Source: a virus (lineage: Duplodnaviria > Heunggongvirae > Uroviricota > Caudoviricetes). From it: a stretch of DNA of 17,240 nucleotides. Both the position numbers and the translations under genes were made by a program. The stretch covers positions 1 to 17,240 of IMG/VR virus record IMGVR_UViG_2671180674_000015. One strand, written 5' to 3'. The notes under the pieces are model-generated. The model saw only the letters and a list, made by a program, of their open reading frames with translations. It was not told the origin of the DNA and did no database searches. The first letter of the stretch is position 1; each line of letters starts with the position of its first letter. This document shows positions 1-16,917 of the stretch, piece by piece.

Positions 1-360
1 GCCGTCCTGTTCCTGAGACAATACGGCACGACCACTGGCGGGCTTGCCCTTAATCGTCCAGCCACGCATATCAGGGATCACGCCTGACGGATAAGCAACT
101 GCAAGTTTCGGGTATGCAGATTTGTCAAAAGTCTGCCCCTGCATCAGGGCATAGCCAGACGGAACGGTATCTGATGGCCACGGGATTGGTGCGCCGACTG
201 GATAAAACTCTGCAGGAGGATGAGCCGAGGTGTAAAGCTGCGCCCACGGCGACCAGTTTGCGTCGATCGTATCCCGTCGTGAACGAATAAATGCCGGAGC
301 ATGAGCACCGCTTGTACCACTCCAGCCGATGAGTAACTCACCTTCGCCAACGGCTGTCAT
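1..360 (-). CDS. Phage side tail fibre protein, C-terminal region (tail-collar-like motif); probably a 5'-truncated remnant, 3' end beyond window start
   Basis: Minus-strand frame from ATG at 360 reads [24 protein letters not shown]...[52 protein letters not shown], with the tail-fibre collar motif YPxL...PDMRGW. The frame stays open upstream to a stop at 457-459. It is absent from the ORF track because it runs off the window. Confidence 0.5.
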
Positions 361-452
361 CCCTTTCAGGTGAATGATATTTCCATACGCTGTTGGATAT
401 CCGTTGTTATACACCTCGTATAAATAGTTTGAATGATTAGCAGTTATGGTGA

Positions 453-659
453 TCAGTCAACCACCAGGGAATAATCCTTCATATTATTATCGTGCTTCAC
501 CAACGCTGCCTCAATTGCTCTGAATGCTTCCAGAGACACCTTATGTTCTATACATGCAATTACAACATCAGGGTAACTCATAGAAATGGTGCTATTAAGC
601 ATATTTTTTACACGAATCAGATCCACGGAGGGATCATCAGCAGATTGTTCTTTATTCAT
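453..659 (-). CDS. ybcW: Small prophage protein of unknown function, DLP12 YbcW-like (68 aa)
   Basis: 68-aa ORF with ATG start, divergent from the ybcV-like gene and adjacent to bor, as in DLP12. Identification is from memory of the DLP12 gene order and size. Confidence 0.55.
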
Positions 660-944
660 TTTGTCGCTCCATGCGCTTGCTCTTCATCTAGCGGTTAAAA
701 TATTACTTCAAATCTTTCTGTATGAAGATTTGAGCACGTTGGCCTTACATACATCTGTCGGTTGTATTTCCCTCCAGAATGCCAGCAGGACCGCACTTTG
801 TTACGCAACCAATACTATTAAGTGAAAACATTCCTAATATTTGACATAAATCATCAACAAAACACAAAGAGGTCAGACCAGATTGAAACGATAAAAACGA
901 TAATGCAAACTACGCGCCCTCGTATCACATGGAAGGTTTTACCA

Positions 945-1355
945 ATGGCTCAGGTTGCCATTTTTAAAGAAATATTCGATCAAGTGCGAAAAGATTTAAA
1001 CTGTGAATTGTTTTATTCTGAACTAAAACGTCACAACGTCTCACATTATATTTACTATCTAGCCACAGATAATATTCACATCGTGTTAGAAAACGATAAC
1101 ACCGTGTTAATAAAAGGACTTAAAAAGGTTGTAAATGTTAAATTCTCAAGAAACACGCATCTTATAGAAACGTCCTATGATAGGTTGAAATCAAGAGAAA
1201 TCACATTTCAGCAATACAGGGAAAATCTTGCTAAAGCAGGAGTTTTCCGATGGGTTACAAATATCCATGAACATAAAAGATATTACTATACCTTTGATAA
1301 TTCATTACTATTTACTGAGAGCATTCAGAACACTACACAAATCTTTCCACGCTAA
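945..1355 (+). CDS. ybcV: DUF1398-family prophage protein, YbcV-like (136 aa from ATG 945; alternative in-frame starts ATG 903, GTG 822)
   Basis: ORF 822-1355. ATG at 945 is preceded by GGAAGG and gives 136 aa. Position next to bor matches DLP12. Confidence 0.6.
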
Positions 1356-1645
1356 ATCATAACGTCCGGTTTCTTCCGTGTCAGCACCGGGGCGTTGGCA
1401 TAATGCAATACGTGTACGCGCTAAACCCTGTGTGCATCGTTTTTAATTATTCCCGGACACTCCCGCAGAGAAGTTCCCCGTCAGGGCTGTGGACATAGTT
1501 AATCCGGGAATACAATGACGATTCATCGCACCTGACATACATTAATAAATATTAACAATATGAAATTTCAACTCATTGTTTAGGGTTTGTTTAATTTTCT
1601 ACACATACGATTCTGCGAACTTCAAAAAGCATCGGGAATAACACC

Positions 1646-1939
1646 ATGAAAAAAATGCTACTCGCTACTGCGCTGGCCCTGCTTATTACAGGATGTGCTC
1701 AACAGACGTTTACTGTTCAAAACAAACCGGCAGCAGTAGCACCAAAGGAAACCATCACCCATCATTTCTTCGTTTCTGGAATTGGGCAGAAGAAAACTGT
1801 CGATGCAGCCAAAATTTGTGGCGGCGCAGAAAATGTTGTTAAAACAGAAACCCAGCAAACATTCGTAAATGGATTGCTCGGTTTTATTACTTTAGGCATT
1901 TATACTCCGCTGGAAGCGCGTGTGTATTGCTCACAATAA
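1646..1939 (+). CDS. bor: Bor outer-membrane lipoprotein (serum-resistance lysogenic conversion protein)
   Basis: 97 aa, signal peptide with lipobox LITGC. Lies opposite to and just downstream of Rz, as lambda bor does. Confidence 0.85.
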   Translation: MKKMLLATALALLITGCAQQTFTVQNKPAAVAPKETITHHFFVSGIGQKKTVDAAKICGGAENVVKTETQQTFVNGLLGFITLGIYTPLEARVYCSQ

Positions 1940-1970
1940 TTGCATGAGTTGCCCATCGATATGGGCAACT

Positions 1971-2432
1971 CTATCTGCACTGCTCATTAATATACTTCTG
2001 GGTTCCTTCCAGTTGTTTTTGCATAGTGATCAGCCTCTCTCTGAGGGTGAAATAATCCCGTTCAGCGGTGTCTGCCAGTCGGGGGGAGGCTGCATTATCC
2101 ACGCCGGAGGCGGTGGTGGCTTCACGCACTGACTGACAGACTGCTTTGATGTGCAACCGACGACGACCAGCGGCAACATCATCACGCAGAGCATCATTTT
2201 CAGCTTTAGCATCAGCTAACTCCTTCGTGTATTTTGCATCGAGCGCAGCAACATCACGCTGACGCATCTGCATGTCAGTAATTGCCGCGTTCGCCAGCTT
2301 CAGTTCTCTGGCATTTTTGTCGCGCTGGGCTTTGTAGGTAATGGCGTTATCACGGTAATGATTAACAGCCCATGACAGGTAGACGATGATGCAGATAACC
2401 AGAGCGGAGATAATCGCGGTTACTCTGTTCAT
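1971..2432 (-). CDS. Rz: Rz i-spanin (inner-membrane spanin subunit)
   Basis: 153 aa from ATG 2432, which overlaps the endolysin stop in an ATGA arrangement. N-terminal TM helix and coiled-coil-like sequence; closely matches lambda Rz as I recall it. Confidence 0.85.
2030..2212 (-). CDS. Rz1: Rz1 o-spanin lipoprotein, embedded in the +1 frame of Rz
   Basis: 60 aa, lipobox VVVGC, proline-rich (PPPPP), wholly nested inside Rz. Confidence 0.85.
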
Positions 2433-2926
2433 TGCTGACCCCACAAACAGATTTCACGCTCAATCTCACGACGAGTCATGAGACCTTTCCATTGCTTACC
2501 GCCAGCATATGTCCAGCGACGTAGCTGATCACATGCGCCTTTGATATCGCCCTGGTTTATTTTGCGAAGAAGCGTCGATGTTCTGAAATTGCCAGCACCC
2601 ACGTTGTAAACGAATGAGTAAAGAGCGCCGCGCGTTGTTTCCGGTATATCGACTTTGATGTACGGGTTAATTTGTCTGGCGACAGTGGCAAGGTCTTTAT
2701 TCAAGAGTGCTTTGCATTCTGCTTTGGTATACGTTTTACCGAGCATGATGTCTTTTCCGGTGTGTCCGTGACATACAGTCCATACGCCAACGATATCTTT
2801 GTATGGTACGTAGCTGACACCTTCCAGACCATCGTTACCACTTGGGCCAGTGATTAACACTGATGCTATAGCAATTGCTCCGCCACCAATAGCAGCAGCA
2901 ACGGCTTTTCGTAATGATGGAGGCAT
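2429..2926 (-). CDS. R: SAR endolysin (T4-lysozyme-like muramidase, phage 21 R-type)
   Basis: 165 aa. N-terminal Gly/Ala-rich signal-anchor-release segment [16 protein letters not shown], followed by an E...D...T catalytic triad pattern. Start overlaps the holin stop. Confidence 0.85.
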
Positions 2927-3141
2927 TATTCACCTCTCGCAGCCTTGCGCTTATCTTCTTTAATCTTGAAATAAAGGTTTGTCAGGTACGTCAGCAGGCC
3001 AAATACCAGGCTACCCAGCACACCTATTGCTGCCCACTGTGAGGGCGTGACTTTATCGAGCAGCTGTAAAAACCAGTACCCGGCACTACCTGCTGAGGTG
3101 CCATAGGCGACACCCGTTGTTAACTTATCCATGGATTTCAT
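2926..3141 (-). CDS. S: Class II holin / pinholin (S21-type) with dual start motif
   Basis: 71 aa, MKSMDK dual-start (Met1/Met4) giving antiholin and holin forms, two TM segments. Sits immediately upstream of the SAR endolysin. Confidence 0.85.
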
Positions 3142-3257
3142 AACCCCACCTCGCAGACAAAGCGGGTGTAAATTGAGGGAATACTACGAAACGTAACAGA
3201 CTCGGAGTCAGTGAATAACTCAGGTATTGGGTTATCAGCTAATATCGAGACTCAAAA

Positions 3258-3292
3258 AATGGAAAAACCCGCTCGACGGCGGGTTTAAGCTG
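3258..3292 (-). terminator. Intrinsic terminator on the minus strand just upstream of the holin gene
   Basis: Minus-strand read AAACCCGC-CGTCGA-GCGGGTTT followed by TTCCATTTTTTG. Confidence 0.5.
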
Positions 3293-3714
3293 TGTGACGA
3301 AGTAACCACTCTTAACAGCATAACCAATTTTTTACGTACGTAAACCACTAAATGATATTTGCGAGAATGCTACCGAGTATTGAAAACACCACTACAAATA
3401 CATAAGCAAATCTCAACAAATAACCAACAAATAATTTCCAGCGTTATTTTTAGTCAATTTAAATTGAACCTTCAAATTATAGAGCACTTATAAATAACAG
3501 CCATTAATATAAATTGGCTAATAGATTTATTTTTATTCAGTCAAGAGCCATGAATAGGATTCGATAGAAAAAAGTTCAGATAAAAATAGAGATCTACTTC
3601 ACAAATCAAACGAGAAACCAAAACTTACATCTTGAAATATTCACATTGATTAGATGAATATTTATCGCGCAGTGACATCATTTTTTAATAATAGTTCAAA
3701 AAAAAGGGCTCACG

Positions 3715-4797
3715 ATGAAAAAATTAACAGTGGCAATTTCTGCTGTAGCTGCATCAGTACTGATGGCGATGTCTGCTCAGGCAGCTGAAATTTATAATAA
3801 AGACAGTAACAAGCTGGATCTGTACGGGAAAGTTAATGCTAAGCACTACTTCTCCTCTAATGATGCAGATGATGGTGATACTACTTATGCCCGTCTTGGC
3901 TTCAAAGGTGAAACCCAAATCAACGATCAACTGACTGGTTTCGGTCAGTGGGAATATGAATTCAAAGGCAACCGCGCTGAATCTCAAGGTTCCTCCAAAG
4001 ATAAAACCCGTCTTGCCTTCGCTGGCCTGAAATTCGGTGACTACGGCTCCATCGATTACGGCCGTAACTACGGTGTAGCATACGACATCGGTGCATGGAC
4101 CGACGTTCTGCCAGAATTCGGTGGCGATACCTGGACCCAAACAGATGTATTCATGACTGGTCGCACCACAGGTGTTGCAACTTATCGTAACAACGACTTC
4201 TTTGGTCTGGTTGATGGCCTGAACTTTGCAGCTCAGTATCAGGGCAAAAATGACCGAAATGAAGTAACTGAAGCTAATGGCGATGGTTTCGGTTTCTCAA
4301 CTACTTATGAGTATGAAGGATTCGGCGTGGGTGCAACCTATGCTAAATCTGATCGCACTAATAATCAGGTTATCTACGGTAACAACGGTCTGAATGCTTC
4401 TGGTCAAAATGCTGAAGTATGGGCAGCTGGTCTGAAATATGATGCGAACAACATCTATCTGGCCACCACCTATTCTGAAACCCAGAACATGACTGTTTTT
4501 GGTAATAACCATATTGCCAACAAAGCACAAAACTTCGAAGCTGTTGCACAATATCAGTTCGACTTCGGCCTGCGTCCATCCGTTGCTTACCTGCATTCTA
4601 AAGGAAAAGACTTGGGTGTTTGGGGTGATCAGGACCTGGTTGAATATGTTGATGTAGGTGCAACCTATTACTTCAACAAAAATATGTCCACTTTTGTTGA
4701 CTACAAAATCAACCTGATTGATAAGAGCGATTTCACGAAAGCATCTGGCGTTGCTACCGATGATATCGTTGCTGTAGGTATGGTTTACCAGTTCTAA
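3715..4797 (+). CDS. nmpC: Outer-membrane general porin, OmpC/OmpF family (NmpC/Lc-like prophage porin moron)
   Basis: 360 aa, signal peptide ending AQA|AE, porin-type beta-barrel with C-terminal Phe (VGMVYQF). Located antisense between Q and the holin, as nmpC is in DLP12 and lc in PA-2. Confidence 0.8.
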
Positions 4798-4811
4798 TTT
4801 GATTACTAAAA

Positions 4812-4893
4812 GATATGTTGTGGGAGGCTTTGCCTCCCCAACATATAAGTGGCTCCCTCAAGCCACTTCCTTTAGAAGCACAACCTTGCTTCT
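4812..4893. other. Cluster of three tandem stem-loops between the porin and Q 3' ends
   Basis: H1 ATATGTTGTGGGAGGC/ttt/GCCTCCCCAACATAT, H2 AAGTGGCT/ccctca/AGCCACTT, H3 AGAAGC/acaacctt/GCTTCT. On the minus strand H1 is followed by CTTTT (tR'-like). Confidence 0.45.
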
Positions 4894-4933
4894 AACTATA
4901 TAAACCTTCTGTTATATATTACCCTTTATTTTT

Positions 4934-4968
4934 GGGGGCGTTTCAACGCCCCATTTTTAATAACTTTT
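4934..4968 (+). terminator. Probable intrinsic terminator downstream of the porin gene
   Basis: GGGGCG/tttcaa/CGCCCC followed by ATTTTTAATAACTTTT on the plus strand. Confidence 0.45.
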
Positions 4969-4985
4969 AGTAAATAATTGGCGTA

Positions 4986-5369
4986 TTAATTAGAGTTATT
5001 AACAACGATATCCATCTCTAACCGGATATCTAATGCCATTAACATCCCTTCAATTATGCCCTCAGCCTTTTGTAACCTTTTCCCGATATAACCATCAGAG
5101 CAGCAATGCTTACCTGCCAGTGACATGAATGTCATACCGACTATATAATAATCTACTAATAAATCGTGCAAATCGCTGTTGTTCTTTTTCAGACGGGCCA
5201 TGCACCCGCAAATGATCATCGCGTCATCGTCACAACATTGCGGGCGAGATTTTACTTTTGAAGGAATTAATCCCTTAAAACCGGCGGCAATGGACGACCA
5301 GGTCACATCTTCATGATTATTAGCCGCCCACGCTCCCCAACGCTCAAGAACCATCTGAATATCACGCAT
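4986..5369 (-). CDS. Q: Late-gene antiterminator Q (phage 82 / DLP12 QuuD-type)
   Basis: ATG at 5369 (MRDIQ...) preceded by GGAG. The track's longer form starts at a TTG. Cys-rich putative zinc-binding region [12 protein letters not shown]. Sits between ylcG and the late/lysis region. Confidence 0.75.
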
Positions 5370-5454
5370 CAACTTACTCCACAAAAATCAGACCAAAACG
5401 CCAATTACAAGCAAAAATCAACAAAACAGTATTAGTTGATTGTTATCTCTGACT

Positions 5455-5595
5455 TCATACTCCTGCTCCTGTCAGGGTTTTGGCGTAACTCTTCAGTATT
5501 CGGTAATCGGTCAAAACAGAACCGGGGAAACGATATAAGCGCAGGCGCACCCAGCGGCGGCGAAGACGTTCTGCCATATAAGACTCAAACATCAT
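5455..5595 (-). CDS. ylcG: Small protein YlcG-like (46 aa), start overlapping the stop of the upstream RusA-derived ORF
   Basis: Reads [46 protein letters not shown], which resembles DLP12 YlcG from memory. Below the ORF-track size cut-off. Confidence 0.55.
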
Positions 5596-6395
5596 TCATC
5601 TCCCAGTTCAGTGATGGTCAGTTCCAGCCTCCCACCTTTGGTAACAGGCATCTTCACAACGCGGTAATCAACGACCTGAGCATCATCCAGCCAGAAACCT
5701 GCTTTGGTGAGTGCGTCAAAAGCGGCCTTTTGCAGATTATCCAGGTCACGGCGACGGCGATCCGGCATGTGGCTACCGCCCATGACAGGAAGTTGTTTTA
5801 CTGGTTCAGGGATCGCCTCACCACGGTTAATTCTCGCAGTCATATGGACAAGCTCATCTGCGGCCTTACGGCGTAATTCCGCATCAGTAAGCGCATTGGC
5901 CCGCATGTTCTGATACAGGTTGGTAACCAGCCAGTAGTGCGCGTTTGATTTCCACGGATAAGACTCCGCATCCGGATACAGGCCTCGCTTCCGGCAATAC
6001 TCGTAAACCATATCAACCAGCTCGCTGACGTTTGGCAGTCCGGCGATAACGGATGCTTCTTCCCGGCACCATGCAACAAACTGCCCGGGTGATGGCAGAA
6101 ATGGTCGATTCTGCCGACGGGCTACGCGCATTCCTGCGTTAACCTGTTCCATTGTGGTGATCCCGTTTTCCCGGAAAGCCAGAACCCACTGGCGGCGGAT
6201 TTCGTTCAGTTCGTTCTGGTCACGGTTAGCCAGACTCGCCGGGAAAGTTGCCAGTAACTGGCTGAACACACCGTTGATGATCTGCGCTACCTGCTGTACC
6301 TGCGGCTTTTCGTCGTACTGTTCCGGCATGTTGTTGGCGATCCGACTCATCTGCTCACGGTCAAAGTTAACCATCTGTGCGGCGATGTTTTTCAT
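5592..6395 (-). CDS. P: Replication protein P (N-terminal ~205 aa) fused in frame to the C-terminal ~60 aa of RusA Holliday-junction resolvase
   Basis: N-terminus [16 protein letters not shown]...[11 protein letters not shown] matches lambda P. The C-terminus [55 protein letters not shown] matches the RusA C-terminus. Junction near 5775. Confidence 0.75.
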
Positions 6396-7291
6396 AGATC
6401 CACCCCGTAAATCCAGTCTGTGTTTGTCAGGTCGAGTTTTGGTTTGCTGGCTGTCACGACTGCCTGTTGCTTGTTACGGTTGATTTCGAGCTGGGTCCAC
6501 TTGTCGCGGAGTTTGGCCGGGCTAAGCACGTTACCGGACCAGAAGTTGTCCTGGCATGCCCAGCGGAACAGCACGCACATGTCGCGGTGGTTACGTCCGT
6601 CACGTTCACGCATCAGGCGGATATCGTTAGCCCACCCTGCAAAATTCGGTTTTCTGGCTGATGGCGCGATGGTCTTCACCATGTCAAACATCCACTCTGC
6701 GGCGGTCAGGTCTTCTGCTGTCCCCCACTTGCTGCCGCTCTGAATTGCAGCATCCGGTTTCACCACAGAAAGGTCGTTTTCTGGCTGGTCAGAGGATTCG
6801 CCAGAATTCTCGGACGAATAATCTTTTCTTTTTTCTTTTGTAATAGTGTCTTTTGTGTCCCCCTGTTTTGAGGGATAGCAATCCCCCAATTTGAGGGATG
6901 TTTTATCCCTCGTTTTAGGGGATTTTCCCTCGTTTTGAGGGATACACCATTCTGAGATGTTTTTATTTGGTCCAAACATGCCGCCTTGCTGCTTGATAAT
7001 ATTCATTCTGACGAGTTCTAACTTGGCTTCATTGCACCGTTTGACAGGTAACTTTGTAATCTCGCTAAGTTGAGAATCGGTGATTCTGTCCATTGGTTTA
7101 TTCCACCCATAGGTTTTACGCAGAATGGCAAGCAGCACTTTAAACTGTCGCTTGGTCAGATCTGCGCCCGAATAAGCCTCAAGCAGCATATTTGATAGTC
7201 TGGCGTAACCATCATCGAGATCTGCCACATTACGCTCCTGTCCGGCAAAGTTACCTCTGCCGAAGTTGAGTATTTTTGCTGTATTTGTCAT
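6392..7291 (-). CDS. O: Replication initiator protein O (lambda-type)
   Basis: 299 aa; stop overlaps the P start (ATGA). Contains the iteron-encoding segment. Strong match to lambda O from memory. Confidence 0.9.
6806..6943. repeat. ori-lambda: four ~19-bp iterons plus adjacent AT-rich region, inside the O gene
   Basis: Direct repeats TCCCCCTGTTTTGAGGGAT, ATCCCCCAATTTGAGGGAT, ATCCCTCGTTTTAGGGGAT, TTCCCTCGTTTTGAGGGAT at 6857-6943, with an A/T tract at 6806-6856. Confidence 0.8.
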
Positions 7292-7301
7292 AATGACTCC
7301 T

Positions 7302-7378
7302 GTTGATAGATCCAGTAATGACCTCAGAACTCCATCTGGATTTGTTCAGAACGCTCGGTTGCCGCCGGGCGTTTTTTA
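7302..7378 (+). ncRNA. oop: OOP antisense RNA (antisense to the cII 3' end) with its intrinsic terminator
   Basis: Plus-strand GTTGATAGATCCAGTAATGACCTCAGAACTCCATCTGGATTTGTTCAGAACGCTCGGTTGCCGCCGGGCGTTTTTT matches my recall of lambda OOP. It overlaps the cII 3' end in antisense and ends in a hairpin plus T-run. Confidence 0.7.
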
Positions 7379-7620
7379 TTGGTGAGTCCATCAAGCGCAT
7401 ACTTAAAAGCCCTGCTAATCGGACTGATGTCTGATGCCATTCCGAAAGCACACAAGACCGAAGCAATAAATCTCCAGTCCGTTCTGCTTATCTTCGATTC
7501 ATGACAGCCAATCATCTTTGCCAGACCGCGCTGGGTAATAGCTGACAGATTGATAAGTAAATCTGTTTCTGCGCGATCAACGTCACGCTGTGATAGTTTG
7601 CTGTAACTTGTTCTTTCCAT
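7324..7620 (-). CDS. cII: CII transcriptional activator (mosaic: heterologous N-terminal part, lambda-like C-terminal tail)
   Basis: 98 aa. C-terminus LTNKKRPAATERSEQIQMEF matches lambda CII; the HTH region differs from lambda. Lies between cro and O. Confidence 0.75.
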   Translation of the reverse strand: MERTSYSKLSQRDVDRAETDLLINLSAITQRGLAKMIGCHESKISRTDWRFIASVLCAFGMASDISPISRAFKYALDGLTNKKRPAATERSEQIQMEF

Positions 7621-7705
7621 TTCTTAAGATTTCCAATAGTGAATAGTTAGTTGAAAGGTATGCGTGGAAACGCATATGGCCTTAGTTGGTCAGATATCTT
7701 GGAAC

Positions 7706-7751
7706 TCGCTTTTCAGCGACGTAGGACGAATGTCCGTTGTTACAAAGAGCG
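7706..7751 (-). promoter_or_regulatory. Putative nutR (boxA CGCTCTTTGTAACAA, intervening hairpin, boxB TCGCT-GAAA-AGCGA)
   Basis: Minus-strand boxA-like sequence 11 nt after the cro stop, then a 5-bp stem with GAAA loop. The same three-part layout recurs downstream of PL. Confidence 0.45.
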
Positions 7752-7761
7752 GATCCGCTTA

Positions 7762-7977
7762 TTAAGCGGCTTTGTGTTCCGGCGGGAACACGTCATCAAG
7801 ACTGACTTTTGCGCCTAACTTGTTTAGGCACGCAACAAGAGCACGGCATGTTTTAAGGTCTGGGAAGCGACGACCAGATTCCCAATGTCCGATAGCTCCC
7901 TGTGTGCATCCAACTGCCTTAGCAAGTGTTGTTTGAGAGATATTCAGTGACTCTCGATATTTTCGTAGGTTGCTCAT
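7762..7977 (-). CDS. cro: Cro-like HTH repressor (71 aa)
   Basis: ATG at 7977 preceded by GGAGGG. HTH segment QTTLAKAVGCTQGAIGHWESGRR. Divergent from cI across the operator region. The track's longer form overlaps the operators and was not used. Confidence 0.7.
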   Translation of the reverse strand: MSNLRKYRESLNISQTTLAKAVGCTQGAIGHWESGRRFPDLKTCRALVACLNKLGAKVSLDDVFPPEHKAA

Positions 7978-8088
7978 ATGCCCTCCATAGTAAACACGAA
8001 TAAAAAAATACAATATGTACTTTACGAATACAAGTAAAAATACATATTGTGCATGGATGGTTCCAGTACAAAGCGTAATAATAAGGAC
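7978..8088. promoter_or_regulatory. Divergent OR/PR/PRM region with three operator-like sites
   Basis: Sites at 8011-8022 (ACAATATGTACT), 8041-8052 (ATACATATTGTG) and 8066-8080 (AGTACAAAGCGTAAT) resemble the OL palindrome AGTACATATCGTACT. A -10-like TAATAT at 8077-8082 places a PRM start at about the cI ATG (leaderless). Confidence 0.5.
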
Positions 8089-8748
8089 ATGAAAATGAAA
8101 TGGTATGAACTGGCTAGATCCAGAATGAAAGAGCTCGGCATAACTCAAGAGAAGTTAGCCGAAGAACTAGGTATGACGCAGGGTGGGATTGGACACTGGT
8201 TGCGCGGATCTCGTCATCCATCTCTTAGTGATATTGGTGTGGTGTTTAAATACCTTGGTATTGATAACATATCATTCAACCACGACGGGACATTTTCACC
8301 TGTTGGCGAATACTCATCGGCCCCAGTTAAAAAACAATATGAGTACCCTGTTTTTTCTCATGTTCAGGCTGGGATGTTCTCTCCAGAACTCAGAACCTTT
8401 ACCAAAGGCGATGCGGAGAGATTGGTAAGCACAACCAAAAAAGCCAGTGACTCTGCATTCTGGCTTGAGGTTGAAGGTAACTCAATGACCGCACCAACAG
8501 GTTCCAAGCCCAGCTTTCCTGACGGGATGTTAATTCTGGTTGACCCTGAGCAGGCTGTTGAGCCAGGCGATTTCTGTATAGCCAGACTTGGTGGTGATGA
8601 GTTTACCTTCAAGAAACTGATCAGGGATAGCGGTCAGGTGTTTCTACAGCCACTAAACCCACAATACCCAATGATCCCATGCAATGAGAGTTGTTCCGTT
8701 GTGGGGAAAGTTATCGCTAGTCAGTGGCCTGAAGAGACGTTTGGGTGA
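8089..8748 (+). CDS. cI: CI prophage repressor, chimeric: heterologous N-terminal HTH domain with lambda-like linker and S24 autocleavage C-terminal domain
   Basis: From [17 protein letters not shown] through the C-terminal ...[12 protein letters not shown] it matches lambda CI (Ala-Gly cleavage site, Ser in GNSM, Lys in KKL). The N-terminal [24 protein letters not shown] is not lambda-like. ATG at 8089 (or 8095). Confidence 0.85.
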
Positions 8749-8794
8749 CAAGAAGCACAGGTATTAACAATAACTTTCATGGTGATACGAATCA

Positions 8795-9337
8795 GTGGCT
8801 AAAAAAGGCGACTTTAAGCCTACCCAGAAAGAGGTTGACCAAGCTATTACTCGCTTGAAAAAAGTAACTTTTAGCGGAGTTACATGGACCGGAAGTGAGG
8901 GACGAACCCCAATCTGGTTTAAATTGGATCTCAAAGCTTTTGATGAAATTGGCAACCCAATCACAGGCATAAGATTTATGCTTCACTGGCGTCCTCCTAT
9001 CGTTGAAGGGGTGGATATAGTGAAGATTTCATTTGTGATGTTTCTTCATGACAGGCGCATTTACGCGCTTGACCCGTACCCTGCGGATAACAAGCCACAC
9101 CGTAATAAATCTATAGTGAACCATCCAGATTTTGTTGAGGTGGCTCGAGGTCCTCACTATCACATGTACTTCGAATCAGCTGGGGAAGAAATTGCACTTA
9201 AGCTTGAAACGAACATCAAGCCAGATGATTTTTTTGGCTACTGGAATTATTTTTGCGAGGCGCTTAATATCATATATGAAGGCAGCCCACCTTTACCTAA
9301 TCAAGATAAATCAGGTCAGCTATCATGGGAAATGTAA
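8795..9337 (+). CDS. Hypothetical protein (180 aa), first gene of an unknown two-gene cassette in the rexA/rexB position
   Basis: ORF opens with GTG at 8795, 46 nt after the cI stop and with no intervening terminator. No motif I recognise. 3' end overlaps the next ORF by 13 nt. Confidence 0.55.
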   Translation: MAKKGDFKPTQKEVDQAITRLKKVTFSGVTWTGSEGRTPIWFKLDLKAFDEIGNPITGIRFMLHWRPPIVEGVDIVKISFVMFLHDRRIYALDPYPADNKPHRNKSIVNHPDFVEVARGPHYHMYFESAGEEIALKLETNIKPDDFFGYWNYFCEALNIIYEGSPPLPNQDKSGQLSWEM

Positions 9338-10101
9338 CGTGTTCAACAGTCATATCTAAGCTCGGGTTTGAATGCCACCCAATGAGCGACACGTTGCTGC
9401 GCGTTATTAGTCCCTTCACATACTACGATGATTGTGAGCAGATAAGTGTATTCGTTCAAGAGATGGGTGGTCAGTATAGGGTTACAGACTACTGCGATAC
9501 ATTGATGAATATTGAATCACGCGGCATCCACCTGACTAAAAAGAAAATTGATCTGATCAGGTCATCACTCGCTTCGCAAGGAATTTCATTAAATGACTCT
9601 GGAGAGATATCTGCGTGGGCAGATGAGTCGTCCGTTGGACAGGTAACTGCAAATGTTATTCGTGGTGGGATTCTTGCATCCGCCCAAACTGCTGATTGGT
9701 ATGCTGAGGTCAAAGACGATAAGTTCGAAAAATGTGTAATCAGTTACTTAAAATCAGCAGGGCTTGGGAAGCGACTAGCCTTAAAGGAAAAAGTGAAAGG
9801 TATTAGTGGGCATAACATTACTGTTCCGTTAACGCTAAGGAATGAGTCTCGACTAATACCACCAAAACGCGGGTTTACGGTAAGCCTTGCCAGCAGTAAG
9901 GGATGGAATACTGCCCACTCAACAGTTGGGAAGATTGTTGACTTAAGTCAGGTCGTTCCTGACATAAACAATAGATTTGTAATAGTTGACAGCGATGGGT
10001 TAACACCTGAGCTACAGCAACTATCACTACTATTTAATGATACCGCACGAGTGTTGCCATTCCATACCAGAGACTCTTGGATTGAGTCTCTGGTAGCCTA
10101 G
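9325..10101 (+). CDS. Hypothetical protein (258 aa from ATG 9325; alternative ATG 9382), second gene of the cassette
   Basis: Long ORF overlapping the upstream ORF's stop, followed directly by a strong terminator. No recognised catalytic motif. Confidence 0.55.
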   Translation: MGNVTCSTVISKLGFECHPMSDTLLRVISPFTYYDDCEQISVFVQEMGGQYRVTDYCDTLMNIESRGIHLTKKKIDLIRSSLASQGISLNDSGEISAWADESSVGQVTANVIRGGILASAQTADWYAEVKDDKFEKCVISYLKSAGLGKRLALKEKVKGISGHNITVPLTLRNESRLIPPKRGFTVSLASSKGWNTAHSTVGKIVDLSQVVPDINNRFVIVDSDGLTPELQQLSLLFNDTARVLPFHTRDSWIESLVA

Positions 10102-10133
10102 AAAAACCCGGCCTCAGCGCCGGGTTTTCTTTG
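10102..10133 (+). terminator. Intrinsic terminator after the immunity-region cassette (t-imm-like)
   Basis: GAAAAACCCGGC-ctcagc-GCCGGGTTTTCTTTG starting right after the TAG stop. Confidence 0.65.
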
Positions 10134-10305
10134 CCTCACGATCGCCCCACCTAAAAACACATAACCAATTGTATTTATTGAAAAATAAATAGATGCAACC
10201 CACTAAACCACGCAATTCTGATCTCTCCTTACATCGCCGAGGCAATACATCCACGCTAAAAAACAACACTATTAAATACAAAGCGTTATAAAAAACCACG
10301 CCAAC

Positions 10306-10356
10306 TTACAACAAATTGTATTGATCTTGTAAAGTACATATCGTACTATTTAACCG
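10306..10356 (+). promoter_or_regulatory. PL promoter with OL operator(s)
   Basis: -35 TTGATC (10321-10326), 17-nt spacer, -10 TACTAT (10344-10349). Palindromic operator AGTACATATCGTACT (10333-10347) overlaps the spacer and -10; a second related site is at 10311-10322. Confidence 0.5.
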
Positions 10357-10394
10357 TCAGCAGGACGCTGGAAGCCAAATGGAACAGACTGGCA

Positions 10395-10440
10395 GGCTCT
10401 TTAAACAACGTCGACTCTCGACTACGTGGCTGAAAAGCCA
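10395..10440 (+). promoter_or_regulatory. Putative nutL (boxA GGCTCTTTAAACAA, intervening hairpin GTCGA-ctc-TCGAC, boxB TGGCT-GAAA-AGCCA)
   Basis: BoxA-like sequence about 40 nt downstream of the predicted PL start, then a 5-bp stem with GAAA loop. Architecture parallels the nutR candidate. Confidence 0.45.
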
Positions 10441-10538
10441 GATCACCCAACCACATAAGCTGTGGGATGCAATGCCGAAGCAACCGTCTCAGGAGGAGCT
10501 TCGAGATTGCATCGCCAAAGTTTATTCGGGAGGAATCC

Positions 10539-10811
10539 ATGTCCAGAAAAACAGAATTTAAAGGCACCGCAGCTTCTCGCCGTAGAGCTCGTCGCGCAAA
10601 TCTGCAAAGTCAGGAGGCGATCAGCTCCGACAAGCTACACAGGCCAACCCCTTCACGAGTGGTCTTGCAATGCAAGCGCAAACCAGCAATGAGAGCAGAA
10701 GTGATAACTCTGACAACGTTGACCAGAAAATATGAAGGTTCAACTTGTCTTCCGAACGTAGCTCTTTACGCGGCAGGCTACCGGAAATCAAAACAACTGA
10801 CGGCGAGATGA
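10539..10811 (+). CDS. N: N-type transcription antiterminator (arginine-rich motif; P22 gene 24-like C-terminus)
   Basis: 90 aa from ATG 10539 with RBS GGGAGGA. N-terminal ARM GTAASRRRARRA; C-terminal ...LPNVALYAAGYRKSKQLTAR. First gene downstream of PL and nutL. Confidence 0.75.
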   Translation: MSRKTEFKGTAASRRRARRANLQSQEAISSDKLHRPTPSRVVLQCKRKPAMRAEVITLTTLTRKYEGSTCLPNVALYAAGYRKSKQLTAR

Positions 10812-10827
10812 TAAATTCATTTGCTAA

Positions 10828-11409
10828 TTACTTGTTTTTGCCATGCTTATCCTGAGCGATAAGTTCATCCATAAGGCTGTCTGCCTTCCCGGCAAACCGA
10901 ATGTAGCACTCATTTCTATAGCGTTCCGGGATAACAAAACGGTCGATTTCAGGATATCCAGTAGCAGAAGGTATCCGAATAAGAAGCCCTTTTTCGAGCA
11001 ATGAGATTGCTTCAGGGCTTCCCTTTTCTGTCTTTAGCTGGTTATTCGCGGCTACAGCGAATGCCAAATACGCTCTTTCTCCAAGAGTTAACGAATCAAA
11101 CAAATCTTGCACATATTTTTCTTCTTTAGATTTGCGCTTCTGAGCAGCGGATACCTCAATTCTTTCAGTCACAGCGTGATAAGCGGAATTAACAACACCG
11201 TTAAGCACATAGCTAACGCAGAACAACAGGATGTAATACATCCAATAATAAGGAAGGATTTCTGGATTATGCAGGTTTATCCATTCTTTTACGCTTACCG
11301 GCATAACAATAATCAATATGATCAGGATGATTAGCATATGAATCAACTGTTTAAGTGTCATTCCTTGCAGGAAAAAATGCATTAGTTCCTGCCACCATGA
11401 GTTGTTCAT
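10828..11409 (-). CDS. sieB: Superinfection exclusion protein B (SieB)-like membrane protein
   Basis: 193 aa, hydrophobic N-terminal segment LIHMLIILIILIIVMPV. Convergent with and directly abutting N, as lambda sieB is. Confidence 0.7.
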   Translation of the reverse strand: MNNSWWQELMHFFLQGMTLKQLIHMLIILIILIIVMPVSVKEWINLHNPEILPYYWMYYILLFCVSYVLNGVVNSAYHAVTERIEVSAAQKRKSKEEKYVQDLFDSLTLGERAYLAFAVAANNQLKTEKGSPEAISLLEKGLLIRIPSATGYPEIDRFVIPERYRNECYIRFAGKADSLMDELIAQDKHGKNK

Positions 11410-11552
11410 CGGCGTTTCTCTTTTGCTCTCTGTAGGGGTGAATAGAGTTTATCCGATTTCTCGCTGTAGGGGTACACGAGAACCACCGAGCCTGATGTGG
11501 TTAAAAGACAGGCACAATCTTTACTACCGCAATCCACTATTTAAGGTGATAT

Positions 11553-11639
11553 ATGGAAGAAGAATTTGAAGAGTTCGAAGAGCATCCTCAGGATGTGATG
11601 GAACAATACCAGGACTATCCGTATGACTACGACTATTGA
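11553..11639 (+). CDS. Small acidic ORF (28 aa), lambda orf28-like
   Basis: Reads MEEEFEEFEEHPQDVMEQYQDYPYDYDY. Its 3' end overlaps the ral start. Confidence 0.4.
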   Translation: MEEEFEEFEEHPQDVMEQYQDYPYDYDY

Positions 11640-11823
11640 TAAAAATCAATGGTGTGGACAATTCAAGCGATGCAATGGATGCAAGCTGCAATCGGAATGC
11701 ATGGTTAAGCCTGAAGAAATGTTTCCTGTAATGGAAGATGGGAAATATGTCGATAAATGGGCAATACGAACGACGGCAATGATTGCCAGAGAACTTGGTA
11801 AACAGAACAACAAAGCTGCCTGA
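11623..11823 (+). CDS. ral: Ral restriction-alleviation protein
   Basis: 66 aa, MTTTIDKNQWCGQFKRCNGCKLQSEC..., matches lambda Ral from memory; lambda gene order. Confidence 0.8.
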   Translation: MTTTIDKNQWCGQFKRCNGCKLQSECMVKPEEMFPVMEDGKYVDKWAIRTTAMIARELGKQNNKAA

Positions 11824-11957
11824 TAGTGGCCTTTATTTTTGGCATAAATAACAGAATAAACACTGCACTGTGTATTCATTCCAACGAGTGAATACACGGA
11901 GCAATGTCGCTCGTAACTAAACAGGAGCCGACTTGTTCTGATTATTGGAAATCTTCT

Positions 11958-11986
11958 TTGCCCTCCAATGTGAGGGCGATTTTTTA
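11958..11986 (+). terminator. Candidate intrinsic terminator or attenuator upstream of ea10 (tL2-like)
   Basis: GCCCTC-caatgt-GAGGGC followed by GATTTTTTA. Confidence 0.45.
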
Positions 11987-12005
11987 TCTGTGAGGATATG
12001 AACAG

Positions 12006-12374
12006 ATGTCAAACATCAAAAAATACATCATTGATTACGACTGGAAAGCATCAATAGAAATTGAAATCGACCATGACGTAATGACAGAGGAAAAACTTCA
12101 CCAGATTAATAATTTCTGGTCAGACTCTGAATACCGACTCAATAAACACGGCTCTTTATTAAATGCTGTATTAATCATGCTGGCGCAACATGCTCTGCTT
12201 ATAGCAATTTCAAGCGACTTAAATGCATATGGTGTTGTGTGTGAGTTCGACTGGAATGATGGAAATGGTCAGGAAGGATGGCCTCCAATGGATGGTAGCG
12301 AAGGAATAAGAATTACCGATATCGATACATCAGGAATATTTGATTCAGATGATATGACTATCAAAGCCGCCTGA
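12006..12374 (+). CDS. ea10: Ea10-like protein
   Basis: 122 aa, RBS GAGGA, located between ral and cIII as in lambda. Confidence 0.65.
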   Translation: MSNIKKYIIDYDWKASIEIEIDHDVMTEEKLHQINNFWSDSEYRLNKHGSLLNAVLIMLAQHALLIAISSDLNAYGVVCEFDWNDGNGQEGWPPMDGSEGIRITDIDTSGIFDSDDMTIKAA

Positions 12375-12446
12375 GCGCTGCGTTACCGCATACCAATAAC
12401 GCTTCACTCGAGGCGTTTTTCGTTATGTATAAATAAGGAGCACACC

Positions 12447-12611
12447 ATGCAATATGCCATTGCAGGGTGGCCTGTTGCTGGCTGCTCTTCCGAATCTTTA
12501 CTTGAACGAATCACCCGTAAATTACGTGACGGATGGAAACGCCTTATCGACATACTTAATCAGCCAGGAGTCCCAAAAAATGGATCAAACACTTATGGCT
12601 ATCCAGACTAA
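12447..12611 (+). CDS. cIII: CIII (FtsH inhibitor that stabilises CII)
   Basis: 54 aa, [54 protein letters not shown]. Below the ORF-track cut-off. Confidence 0.8.
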   Translation: MQYAIAGWPVAGCSSESLLERITRKLRDGWKRLIDILNQPGVPKNGSNTYGYPD

Positions 12612-12723
12612 ATTCACTATCGCCACTTTTATTGGCGATGAAAAGATGTTTCGTGAGGCCGTCGACGCTTATAAAAAATGGATATTAATACTGAAACTGA
12701 GATCAAGCAAAAGCATTCACTAA
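12580..12723 (+). CDS. kil: Kil (host cell-division inhibitor)
   Basis: 47 aa, [47 protein letters not shown]; overlaps the cIII 3' end and the gam 5' end. Confidence 0.75.
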
Positions 12724-13094
12724 CCCCCTTTCCTGTTTTCCTAATCAGCCCGGCATTTCGCGGGCGATATTTTCACAGCTATTTCAGGAGTTCAGCCATG
12801 AACGCTTATTACATTCAGGATCGTCTTGAGGCTCAGAGCTGGGCGCGTCACTACCAGCAGATCGCCCGTGAAGAGAAAGAGGCAGAACTGGCAGACGACA
12901 TGGAAAAAGGCCTGCCCCAGCACCTGTTTGAATCGCTATGCATCGATCATTTGCAACGCCACGGGGCCAGCAAAAAAGCCATTACCCGTGCGTTTGATGA
13001 CGATGTTGAGTTTCAGGAACGCATGGCAGAACACATCCGGTACATGGTTGAAACTATTGCTCGCCACCAGGTTGATATTGATTCAGAGGTATAA
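12678..13094 (+). CDS. gam: Gam (RecBCD inhibitor)
   Basis: 138 aa, near-identical to lambda Gam from memory; internal start MNAYYIQ for the short form. Confidence 0.9.
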
Positions 13095-13099
13095 AACGG

Positions 13100-13885
13100 A
13101 TGAGTACAGCACTCGCAACGCTGGCAGGGAAGCTGGCTGAACGTGTCGGCATGGATTCTGTCGACCCACAGGAACTGATCACCACTCTTCGCCAGACGGC
13201 ATTTAAAGGTGATGCCAGCGATGCGCAGTTCATCGCATTGTTGATCGTCGCCAACCAGTACGGCCTTAATCCGTGGACGAAAGAAATTTACGCCTTCCCT
13301 GACAAGCAGAACGGCATCGTTCCGGTGGTGGGCGTTGATGGCTGGTCCCGTATCATCAATGAAAACCAGCAGTTTGATGGCATGGACTTTGAGCAGGACA
13401 ATGAATCATGTACATGCCGGATTTACCGCAAGGACCGTAATCATCCGATCTGCGTTACCGAGTGGATGGATGAATGCCGCCGCGAACCATTCAAAACCCG
13501 CGAAGGCAGAGAAATCACCGGACCGTGGCAGTCGCATCCCAAACGGATGTTACGGCATAAAGCCATGATTCAGTGTGCCCGTCTGGCCTTCGGATTTGCT
13601 GGTATCTATGACAAGGATGAAGCCGAGCGCATTGTCGAAAATACCGCATACACTGCAGAACGTCAGCCGGAACGCGACATCACTCCGGTTAACGATGAAA
13701 CCATGCAGGAGATTAACACTCTGCTGATTGCCCTGGACAAAACATGGGATGACGACTTATTGCCGCTCTGTTCCCAGATATTTCGCCGCGACATTCGCGC
13801 ATCGTCAGAACTGACACAGGCCGAAGCAGTGAAAGCTCTTGGATTCCTGAAACAGAAAGCCTCTGAACAGAAGGTGGCTGCATGA
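13100..13885 (+). CDS. bet: Bet (Red-beta single-strand annealing protein)
   Basis: 261 aa, matches lambda Bet. Confidence 0.9.
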
Positions 13886-14562
13886 CACCGGACATTATCC
13901 TGCAGCGTACCGGGATCGACGTGAGAGCTGTCGAACAGGGGGATGATGCGTGGCACAAATTACGGCTCGGCGTCATCACCGCTTCAGAAGTTCACAATGT
14001 GATAGCAAAACCCCGCTCCGGAAAGAAATGGCCTGACATGAAAATGTCCTACTTCCACACCCTGCTTGCCGAGGTTTGCACCGGTGTGGCTCCGGAAGTT
14101 AACGCTAAGGCGCTGGCCTGGGGAAAACAGTACGAGAACGACGCCAGAGCCCTCTTTGAGTTCACTTCCGGCGTGAATGTTACTGAATCCCCGATCATCT
14201 ATCGCGACGAAAGTATGCGCACCGCCTGCTCTCCCGATGGTTTATGCAGTGACGGCAATGGCCTTGAACTGAAATGCCCGTTTACCTCACGGGATTTCAT
14301 GAAGTTCCGGCTCGGTGGTTTCGAGGCCATAAAATCGGCTTACATGGCCCAGGTGCAGTACAGCATGTGGGTGACACGAAAAGATGCCTGGTACTTTGCC
14401 AACTATGACCCGCGTATGAAGCGTGAAGGCCTGCATTATGTCGTGATTGAGCGGGATGAAAAGTACATGGCGAGTTTTGACGAGATGGTGCCGGAGTTCA
14501 TCGAAAAAATGGACGAGGCACTGGCTGAAATTGGTTTTGTATTTGGGGAGCAATGGCGATGA
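13882..14562 (+). CDS. exo: Exo (lambda exonuclease, Red-alpha)
   Basis: 226 aa, matches lambda Exo; start overlaps the bet stop. Confidence 0.9.
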
Positions 14563-14741
14563 AGCATCCTCACGATAATATCCGGGTAGGCGCGATCACT
14601 TTCGTCTACTCCGTTACAAAGCGAGGCTGGGTATTTCCCGGCCTTTCTGTTATCCGAAATCCCCTGAAAGCACAGCGGCTGGCTGAGGAGATAAATAATA
14701 AACGGGGAGCTGTATGCACAAAGCATCTCCCGTTGAGTTAA
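14553..14741 (+). CDS. Lambda orf60a-like small protein
   Basis: 62 aa; start overlaps the exo 3' end; lambda-like position. Confidence 0.55.
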
Positions 14742-14905
14742 GAACGAGTATCGAGATGGCACATAGCCTCGCTCAAATTGGAGTCAGGTTTGTGCCAATT
14801 CCAGTAGAAACAGACGAAGAATTTCATACGTTAGCCGCATCCCTTTCACAAAAGCTGGAAATGATGGTGGCGAAAGCAGAAGCAGATGAGAGAGACCAGG
14901 TATGA
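14714..14905 (+). CDS. Lambda orf63-like small protein
   Basis: 63 aa, overlaps neighbouring ORFs; lambda-like position. Confidence 0.55.
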   Translation: MHKASPVELRTSIEMAHSLAQIGVRFVPIPVETDEEFHTLAASLSQKLEMMVAKAEADERDQV

Positions 14906-14985
14906 CAACCACTGAATGCATTTTTCTGGTAGCGGGCTTCATATTCTGTGTGCTTATGCTTGCCGACATGGGACTTGTTCAATGA
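14902..14985 (+). CDS. Hydrophobic micro-ORF (27 aa), start and stop overlapping the flanking genes
   Basis: Reads MTTTECIFLVAGFIFCVLMLADMGLVQ; ATGA overlaps at both ends. Confidence 0.3.
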   Translation: MTTTECIFLVAGFIFCVLMLADMGLVQ

Positions 14986-15197
14986 CACCTCAGCAAGAAA
15001 ACGCCCTTCGCAGTATTGCCCGTCAGGCTAATTCTGAAATCAAAAAAGCCAGACAGCAGTTTCCGGATAAAAACGTCGATGACATTTGCCGTAGCGTACT
15101 GAAGAAGCACCGCGAAACGGTAACGCTGATGGGATTCACACCGACTCATTTAAGCCTGGCGATCGGCATGTTAAACGGCGTCTTTAAGGAACGGTGA
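14982..15197 (+). CDS. Lambda orf61-like small protein (alternative longer start at ATG 14916)
   Basis: Reads MTPQQENALRSIARQANSEIKKARQQF...; lambda-like position. Confidence 0.5.
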   Translation: MTPQQENALRSIARQANSEIKKARQQFPDKNVDDICRSVLKKHRETVTLMGFTPTHLSLAIGMLNGVFKER

Positions 15198-15217
15198 GCA
15201 TGAAAAACAAAATCATC

Positions 15218-15243
15218 ATGGAGCTACAGGCTCCTTTTTTATT
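15218..15243 (+). terminator. Weak intrinsic terminator candidate
   Basis: GGAGC-tacag-GCTCC followed by TTTTTTATT. Confidence 0.35.
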
Positions 15244-15295
15244 ATTCGCATTCACCCTCAAGCGTATTAACCAACAATTCAGGGATTAATGAAAG

Positions 15296-15517
15296 ATGGC
15301 AGACATCATTGATTCAGCATCAGAAATTGAAGAATTACAGCGCAACACAGCAATAAAAATGCGCCGCCTGAACCACCAGGCTATATCTGCCACTCATTGT
15401 TGTGAGTGTGGCGATCCGATAGATGAACGAAGACGCCTGGCCGTTCAGGGTTGTCGGACTTGTGCAAGTTGCCAGGAGGATCTGGAACTTATCAGTAAAC
15501 AGAGAGGTTCGAAGTGA
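15296..15517 (+). CDS. TraR/DksA-family C4 zinc-finger protein (lambda orf73-like)
   Basis: 73 aa with CxxC...CxxC (CCECGD ... CRTCASC), typical of TraR/DksA C4 fingers. Confidence 0.7.
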   Translation: MADIIDSASEIEELQRNTAIKMRRLNHQAISATHCCECGDPIDERRRLAVQGCRTCASCQEDLELISKQRGSK

Positions 15518-15727
15518 GCGAAATTAACTAGAAGACAAAGATAAAATCATCGCTGAGCAGGAGAAAATCGCTAACGGAGAAAAGACAGTAAGTCAGTATA
15601 TGAAAACCGCATGATATCATCAGATAAAAATCGATCGTAAAGCGAAATATTAATACCAGAATAAACGAGTCGAGGTAAATTATATTACCTCGATAAATTA
15701 ACTAAAACTTGCCCGCTATATACTATC

Positions 15728-16330: not shown

Positions 16331-16572
16331 TACTTACTGCACAATAATACACAAAATTGCGTAAATTTTTTGCATGGATTTTAGCTCTTTCAGCCGACGT
16401 TTAAGGGGTAAATAGCATTTCCTAAAAGCAACTGCACCAACCCAACAGAATGAGCTACCGCTTACGTTGAGAGCAAAAAAGTGTATAGCAGCAATGAACA
16501 GCATCCTCGCACTGACGGGGATTTCTTTTATCTGAGCTCGTTACGGCGAGTTTTGTTTTATGGAGACAAGAA

Positions 16573-16917
16573 ATGTCAGATTTGGCTATGAAGGTTTTGA
16601 AATGGCAATCAACTGGCGATGTCGGCATCAGTAGCGCAACTCTTGCCTCAATCGCATGTGGCCTGAAAAAGAATATCTATGGTCATCACTTCGGCGCTCC
16701 CCATGACGCAGCAGACTTTCGGCGATGCGTTGCACTTGTTGAGCAGATTCCAGAAATCAGAGATTCATTCGACAAGGTTGCAAAGCGCGTTCCGGCATTC
16801 AAAGGAATCCTCAACGAATGGGATTCACTCGTTGCTCTGTTGAAGTCTGAAATGAAGACGTACGGGAACAAAGCACCAGAGACTTACAGAAGAATCAGCG
16901 AGCTACGCAAGGACTAA
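16573..16917 (+). CDS. Hypothetical protein (114 aa)
   Basis: ATG with RBS GGAGA at 6-nt spacing; no recognised motif. Confidence 0.5.
   Translation: MSDLAMKVLKWQSTGDVGISSATLASIACGLKKNIYGHHFGAPHDAADFRRCVALVEQIPEIRDSFDKVAKRVPAFKGILNEWDSLVALLKSEMKTYGNKAPETYRRISELRKD

Follow-up and report, generated by a model that had tools for sequence, protein, structure and literature searches.

An open reading frame (ORF) of the 17,240-nt stretch analysed here (IMG/VR record IMGVR_UViG_2671180674_000015, positions 1 to 17,240; hereafter the window) encodes a 267-aa chimera, P(1-207)-Ser-RusA(62-120), in which the N-terminal part of the lambda replication protein P runs in frame into the C-terminal part of RusA (5592..6395, minus strand). 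This fusion ORF is most probably (probability about 0.85) the scar of one recent 2,309-bp illegitimate deletion within a lambdoid prophage at argW-dsdC, an event that would have left the helicase loader dead for replication.

The chimera was delimited with the ORF list, Pfam matches to both P and RusA, PDB sequence matches, and alignments to lambda P and to the P and RusA of an intact prophage in E. coli F5 (NZ_CP195955.1; locus L001). Pfam Phage_lambda_P (PF06992, curated cut-off 26 bits) covers fusion residues 38-198 with its entire profile (positions 1-162 of 162; 208.2 bits, E 7.9e-62), and Pfam RusA (PF05866) covers residues 207-261 with the last 40% of its profile (positions 76-123 of 124; E 2.7e-12). 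In a sequence search of the PDB, lambda P chains match residues 1-210 (E 1e-136), and the tail matches E. coli RusA 1Q8R (E 3.7e-33) and 2H8C. Nucleotide mapping against the intact relative places the switch from P to RusA at window 5773/5774, where the coding strand of the fusion reads ...ATGGGCGGTAG/CCACATGCCG (here and below, a slash within a sequence marks the joint). The P-derived part (5774..6395, minus strand; P nt 1-622) is collinear with L001 8601..9222; it comprises all of domains I-III and reaches 15 residues into domain IV, without the lasso helix (domain limits from PMC12661323). The rusA-derived part (5592..5772, minus strand; rusA nt 183-363, which are codons 62-120 plus the stop) is collinear with L001 6109..6289 with 0 differences. 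Between the two lies a G (5773..5773, minus strand) that both parents contain, as seen when the window, P and rusA are displayed side by side. The coding strands at the joint read ...ATGGGCGGTAGACCTCT in the parent P, ...ATTGAGTGCCACATGCC in the parent rusA and ...ATGGGCGGTAGCCACATGCC in the window. Codon 208 is a hybrid, in which AGA of P has taken the C of rusA TGC to become AGC (Ser208). The ORF is in frame, and the native ATGA overlaps with the O stop and the ylcG start are both kept. Chance is far from accounting for the junction, as the nucleotide identity of each half to the corresponding gene of the relative is 99-100%. The preliminary description had proposed such a fusion, with about 205 residues of P, about 60 of RusA and a junction near 5775; Pfam, PDB and nucleotide alignment bear this out and refine the parts to 207 and 59+1 residues and the junction to 5773/5774, while the microhomology it suggested looking for between P and rusA amounts to the single G.

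Within fusion residues 1-207 there are three substitutions relative to lambda P (R17S, V63L and T117I). Relative to the F5 P gene, the P part has 6 nucleotide differences, 5 synonymous ones and R17S, all within P nt 49-213; O, the rusA remnant, ylcG and Q have none. R17S (fusion codon 17, window 6345-6347), the only non-synonymous difference from the F5 P gene, adjoins the N-terminal lasso residues Q15 and M16, which contact DnaB, and only 2 of 78 P homologues have serine there.

The origin of the joint is seen in a whole-window megablast search against 5,426 complete E. coli genomes. The F5 prophage is collinear with the window and 2.3 kb longer, with the gene order P (233 aa), ren, ninB, an N6-adenine methyltransferase gene, ninE, ninX, a ybcO (DUF1364) fragment, rusA (120 aa), ylcG and quuD. 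Window 2185..5773 corresponds to L001 2702..6290 and window 5773..15529 to L001 8600..18356; the window is without exactly L001 6291..8599, which is 2,309 bp. Around the joint there are 0 mismatches to F5 over 409 nt on the P side and 0 over 1,672 nt on the rusA side. The deletion begins at base 1 or 2 of P codon 208 and ends at base 3 of rusA codon 61. Lost with it are the P lasso, ren, tR2, ninB, the N6-adenine methylase gene, ninE, ninX, the ybcO fragment and the first 61 codons of rusA; the rest of the window is free of ren, nin and rusA 5' sequence. The identical flanks and the one shared base therefore point to a recent illegitimate deletion within one prophage, not to a join of two phages. 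The in-frame outcome may have arisen by chance or by selection. A comparison with a relative carrying intact P and nin genes had been recommended in the preliminary description; made with F5, it displays the deletion directly, and the loss of the P 3' end, of the ren/nin genes and of the rusA 5' half is demonstrated by the missing 2,309 bp that F5 still carries. The accompanying proposal that the junction joins lambda-like early to DLP12-like late sequence does not hold, however, as both regions are already together in F5, with a normal nin region between them, and F5 is identical to the window on either side of the break.

The window ends on its right with torI, which in relatives is followed by dsdC; the element is therefore placed at the argW-dsdC (KplE1/CPS-53) site of E. 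coli. Its early genes include cII, cro, a LexA-like cI, N, exo/bet/gam, kil and cIII, and its late genes Q, an OmpC/NmpC-type porin, holin, lysozyme, spanin, bor and ybcV/ybcW. The gene order is that of lambda: torI ... exo-bet-gam-kil-cIII-N-cI-cro-cII-O-P'::'rusA-ylcG-Q-porin-lysis-bor-ybcV-ybcW, then a tail-fibre fragment. No cos-like match was found in the window, and terminase and all head and tail genes are absent. A second deletion joint (420..421) connects the ybcW side with the 3' part of a tail-fibre gene; ybcW/ybcV homology ends at window 421, and in locus L002 the tail-fibre and tail-fibre-assembly genes come next. This second joint (~420/421) occurs in 0 of the 5,426 complete genomes and is lineage-specific; its deletion took away cos, terminase and the whole set of head and tail genes. 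As judged from its gene content, the element is a defective (cryptic) lambdoid prophage remnant with a lambda-type early region and a DLP12-type nin/late region.

The immunity and early control region (7324..8748; L002 gene calls and Pfam mapped to the window, and the F5 annotation) contains cII (7324..7620, minus strand), cro (7762..7977, minus strand) and a cI/LexA-like repressor gene (8053..8748, plus strand), and it is here that pR transcription through O and the fusion begins. The replication initiator O (6392..7291, minus strand) is intact, matches Pfam Phage_rep_O and is identical to lambda O at 299 of 299 residues; its stop overlaps the fusion start (ATGA). Within it, ori-lambda (6811..6943) is also intact, with four iterons and the AT-rich stretch (1 mismatch in 133 nt relative to lambda 39034-39166). 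On the other side of the fusion, ylcG (5455..5595, minus strand; ORF list, with PF26818 on an identical gene in L002) has its start overlapping the fusion stop (ATGA), and is followed by a late antiterminator Q of the QuuD type (4986..5369, minus strand; Pfam Phage_antitermQ, E 1.2e-53; gene call in L002).

Additional features were observed in the same prophage. The OmpC/NmpC-type porin gene (360 aa, window 3715-4797, plus strand), between Q and the lysis cassette, is uninterrupted, whereas nmpC of the K-12 DLP12 is split by IS5. Downstream of cI, at the position of lambda rexA/rexB, are two genes for a 180-aa protein (8795-9337, plus strand) and a 258-aa DUF1828 protein (9325-10101, plus strand), which weakly match components A and B of the PADLOC candidate defence system PDC-M24 (E 4e-4 and 4e-7). 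The lambda cIII thermoregulator RNA element (12434-12492, plus strand; 84 bits) is the only Rfam family over threshold in the window.

The expected effect of the deletion on P follows the domain structure of the lambda protein, which consists of domains I (1-29), II (~30-119), III (~120-192) and IV (193-233), the last being an extended segment and a helix (211-227) called the "C-terminal lasso" (PMC12661323). The lasso helix packs on the DH-LH elements of DnaB in every protomer via A215, K218, I219, I222 and F226; it thereby disrupts the DH-LH interface, and it seems to engage the helicase before any other P element (PMC12661323). In the fusion, P sequence ends after residue 207, and the lasso helix is lost with residues 208-233. 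Among the five DnaB-contact positions, only F226 is matched by the replacing RusA sequence, at an 8-residue offset. Domains I-III probably still fold, and O binding and some DnaB contact are conceivable. With the lasso helix lost, helicase opening and loading at the intact ori should fail, and the prophage would be unable to load DnaB at ori and so dead for replication. That it probably cannot replicate by the lambda pathway had been suggested before, and is a sound conclusion given that the lost residues 208-233 contain the DnaB-binding lasso (211-227). As O and ori are intact, the loader would be the replication lesion, and the fusion would account for the expected inability to replicate despite a perfect O gene and origin. 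Residual DnaB binding or toxicity of the fusion is possible, domain III alone making a large DnaB contact. Replicative killing is the death of the host through firing of the ori-lambda of a trapped prophage (concept from PMC4926192). A dead loader would also remove such killing on derepression by a prophage unable to form particles, and relief from it is a plausible, if unproven, selective reason for the lesion.

In RusA, endonuclease activity depends critically on residues D70, D72, K76 and D90/D91, the two monomers meet at the dimer interface through their beta-sheets, and the loop 15-28 shifts conformation on DNA binding (PMC1636454). The stub in the fusion keeps D70, D72, K76 and D90/D91, and is without residues 1-61 (of ~120), including helix alpha1 and the flexible loop 15-28; part of the dimer-interface beta-sheet is probably within the missing half. 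Since half of the RusA fold is lost, no resolvase activity is expected, and the stub would not be a resolvase.

Transcription may also be affected. A tR2-like hairpin, AGGCCTGCTGGTAATCGCAGGCCTTTTTATTT, with a T-run and identical to that of lambda, is located at L001 8185..8208, only within the deleted DNA; the lambda hairpin between ren and ninB is presumably tR2. A consensus terminator scan of the parent gives this hairpin as its sole strong intrinsic terminator between cro and Q, and no comparable one is left in that interval of the window. Q now lies ~1 kb downstream of O, with no tR2 between, and pR transcripts should reach Q without N, as in lambda nin deletions. This N-independence is predicted from the scan, which covered intrinsic terminators (tR1 being Rho-dependent), and from the behaviour of lambda nin5. 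Ribosomes would read O, then the chimera, then ylcG via both ATGA overlaps, and, the joint being in frame, this continuous translation should avoid polarity on Q.

How the scar formed is a further question, for which a more specific account has roughly even odds: a recurrent, sequence-directed breakage or recombination that cuts P at nt 622 and 482/483 and joins the end to a nearby "...TA" site. This account is about scar formation and is compatible with the deletion-scar explanation. Its main evidence is a set of P fusions gathered from protein hit lists with the chimera as query, the junctions then being mapped at the nucleotide level. At least six junctions, independent and with different partners (the window and five others), at four chromosomal loci end or begin at P nt 622, after GGCGGTA, with P alleles that are 91-100% mutually identical. 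In the window (argW-dsdC, 5773/5774), ...GGCGGTAG/CCAC leads into rusA at codon 61/62. In L006 (L006 6622), which belongs to the same locus family and has a different immunity region, ...GGCGGTA/TCGG leads into rusA codon 49; in L165, a Rac-like prophage, ...GGCGGTA/CCAAAGG leads into rusA codon 105 (near 4200-4330); in L008 (L008 6556), DLP12 at argU and present in 6 complete genomes, ...GGCGGTA/TTCG leads into ninE codon 6; and in L167, a remnant at att-lambda beside ybhC, ...GGCGGTA/TCTGG leads into ybcO codon 87 (near 4200-4330). The junction of strain 3PT (L160 471-475), at argW-dsdC, is a mirror image, dsdC'...GGGTAG-ACC..., in which only the last ~27 codons of P are left.

A second cluster is found at P nt 482-484, at CCTGTA(T)/. 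It contains L162, L163 and P0089/90, whose partners are rusA codon 19, ybcN codon 87 and the interior of IS3 orfB, respectively, as well as the left ends of L165 and L167, which keep exactly P nt 484-622 (139 bp) of P and differ in flanks and loci. Several further P fragments begin at residue ~160. Two of the 27 TA dinucleotides in P take nearly all events, and the partner sites are mostly G-N-T-A/. By a rough, after-the-fact estimate, it is very unlikely under a uniform model that two 3-nt intervals would hold so many of the roughly 20-35 known P breakpoints. The other public E. coli P fusions include P0018 (P207::RusA49), P0019 (P161::RusA19), P0063 (P207::NinE6) and P0244 (O29::P162-207::RusA105), and the P breakpoint nucleotide of P0018, P0063, P0244 and P0257 is that of the window. 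P0018, P0019, P0063 and P0244 are scars of the same kind as the window fusion, although they differ from it in right-hand partner, prophage, locus and P allele; no description of these four was found in a literature search.

The independence of these events may be incomplete. Strain 3PT also carries a ybcN fragment joined to rusA codon 49 (L160 2403-2730), which is the rusA endpoint of L006, and its ybcN side ends in CATGGTGCTTTA, which is similar to the P sequence CATGGGCGGTA. As imperfect direct repeats, the two may have given rise to the L006 joint. L006 and 3PT, sharing a rusA endpoint, may be related by descent and hence not fully independent. Derivation of the window joint from the P0018 joint by a further 36-nt deletion was considered as well and rejected: it is arithmetically possible, but the rusA side of the window is that of F5, to which that of L006 is only 92% identical.

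Several other points weigh against sequence-directed breakage. The joint of the window itself shares a G, not TA; the sample was gathered from protein hit lists rather than by systematic survey; and scans of IMG/VR, JGI metagenomes and GTDB representatives gave no further events, what they yielded being codon variants, a single 1-bp frameshift and the NinE fusion already known. No mechanism was found among the candidates examined. A homologous or slipped-strand event at the window joint is ruled out by the 1 nt shared. DNA folding shows no hairpin or cruciform where P breaks (z-scores -0.22 and 0.00). Nor is nt 622 a natural mosaic or homology boundary, as 108 unique P alleles share a conserved tail and the modules actually change at codon ~230. 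Of the consensus motifs compared by eye (gyrase cleavage, Chi, lambda Int core, dif/Xer, EcoKI and AccI-type GTAGAC), none fits both hotspots or the partner sites; in the same comparison, a lambda Int core-like CAACTTCCT was seen 13 nt upstream of the P breakpoint.

The nt-622 site also bears a resemblance to cos. The 13-mer GGGCGGTAGACCT (L001 8596-8608, minus strand), which overlaps it, differs from the cohesive end GGGCGGCGACCT only by C->TA. Across the 20-kb F5 locus this pattern is found only at the P site and at the true cos (L001 1078-1089), on the same strand, and the cos-like P site is destroyed by the deletion at window 5773/5774. A pseudo-cos was nevertheless rejected as the cause: the match is real but post hoc, the predicted nicks at nt 611/624 miss the nt-622 end, the second site is left unexplained by cos, and the other deletion of the window does not end at cos.

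It is only a tentative proposal, somewhat less probable than its negation, that P holds two precise deletion hotspots (nt 482/483 and nt 622), with joins nearly always to ...TA/ and, at nt 622, always in frame, produced by an undescribed sequence-directed process (for example, terminase that nicks at GGGCGGTAGACCT, or else a nuclease or TA-crossover recombinase) or by selection on the segment between the sites. If the proposal is true, either cause of the hotspots would shape the domestication of lambdoid prophages. Should the hotspot hold in a systematic survey, prophage domestication in E. coli would proceed by preferred cuts, not by random erosion, and the classical lambda replicative-killing selection could serve to reproduce and dissect such cuts. 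It is the recurrent, in-frame, TA-linked P breakpoints, not the fusion itself, that merit follow-up.

An improbable alternative to a passive scar is that the in-frame chimera is selected, either because unbroken translation of O, fusion and ylcG keeps Q and the late genes free of polarity, or because the protein acts, for example as an O/DnaB decoy against incoming lambdoid phages. All right-hand fusions at P nt 622 (5/5) are in the native frame of the partner, where ~1/243 would be expected with random frame, the ATGA overlaps with O and ylcG are intact, and so are the Q, holin, lysozyme and spanin genes. The 5/5 in-frame fusions hint that translation through the joint may matter, which would be odd for a pure scar; however, protein searches may favour readable fusions. 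Additionally, the joint is limited to one near-clonal lineage (1 mismatch in 16.4 kb among carriers) and absent from all 5,426 complete genomes, the chimera shows no family-level conservation, and its ORF would be expressed only once pR is derepressed, so that a decoy would be absent at infection by a heteroimmune phage.

Inter-phage recombination, or misassembly of lambda-like and DLP12-like prophages of one genome, is a very improbable source of the joint. Several lambdoid prophages with P and rusA are usual in an E. coli genome (median 2 places), which could in principle mislead assemblers or feed ectopic recombination. The contiguous joint was found in 0 of the 5,426 complete E. coli genomes and 0 of the GTDB species representatives, but 7 contigs from independent samples (NCBI GCA_900479185.1; Logan SRR31707468 and ERR1082534) encode the identical 267-aa protein, and these contigs match the window at 99.99% identity across as much as 16.4 kb. 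An assembly artefact, which the preliminary description had named as something that would overturn its reading, is thus ruled out by the same joint in assemblies that differ in sample and pipeline; one shared base at the joint is too short to make a repeat-induced error credible, and a single intact prophage, that of F5, matches both flanks with 0 mismatches. The fusion protein is deposited in NCBI and UniRef as "replication protein P" (15 Escherichia entries in UniRef), which means that database entries of this name can be chimeric pseudogene products.

That the C-terminal 60 residues are a native variant tail of the P family, a reading also raised at the outset, is next to impossible: lambda P 208-233 and RusA 69-94 are vaguely alike (11 of 26 ungapped identities), but the tail is 100% identical at the nucleotide level to rusA of the relative up to the rusA stop that overlaps ylcG, its Pfam and PDB matches are to RusA, and natural P tails in 108 alleles all read RPLNRAQALAKIAEIKAKFGLKG... 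The likeness between the lost lasso region, RPLNRAQALAKIAEIKAKFGLKGASV, and these RusA residues (window 5670-5750) is reached by 1 of 20,000 shuffles. A RusA helix standing in for the P lasso was considered on this basis (p ~5e-5) and rejected, as nucleotide identity is 44% and 1 of 5 contact residues is kept, with the register offset by 8 residues.

The fusion, understood as the scar of one deletion, is ordinary prophage decay of a familiar kind, and no described P::RusA precedent was found in a literature search. The closest laboratory counterparts are the lambda nin deletions (nin5 and nin3, N-independent mutants), in which, as in the window, a block between P and Q including tR2 is removed and Q is brought nearer the replication genes. 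The nin5 deletion begins in ren and leaves P intact, and the phage is viable. In contrast, the deletion in the window has its left end inside P, removing the DnaB-binding lasso, and its right end inside rusA of a DLP12-type nin region, and it is a natural event in a prophage already without virion genes. Thus the window resembles the nin class in having lost tR2 and the nin genes, but not in having intact replication genes or being a viable phage, as the P 3' end, cos and the morphogenesis genes are gone. The expected effect is that of RK- mutants of trapped lambda prophage fragments (Hayes laboratory), in which O, P or ori mutations, including deletions, stop ori-lambda initiation and spare the host (PMC4926192); those mutants were selected in the laboratory, whereas selection of the natural deletion would be a matter of inference. 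DLP12 of E. coli K-12 (peaD, renD, rusA, ylcG, quuD, nmpC, essD, rrrD, rzpD, borD, ybcV, ybcW) is like the window in its late half, with the order rusA-ylcG-Q-porin-lysis-bor-ybcV-ybcW and near-identical sequence, and also has a broken P and no virion genes. The two differ in that K-12 DLP12 keeps a 3' fragment of P (peaD, codons 130-233) and a full rusA, while the window keeps the 5' part of P and the 3' part of rusA, together with an intact lambda-type immunity region, O and ori, an uninterrupted porin gene, and a location at argW-dsdC rather than argU.
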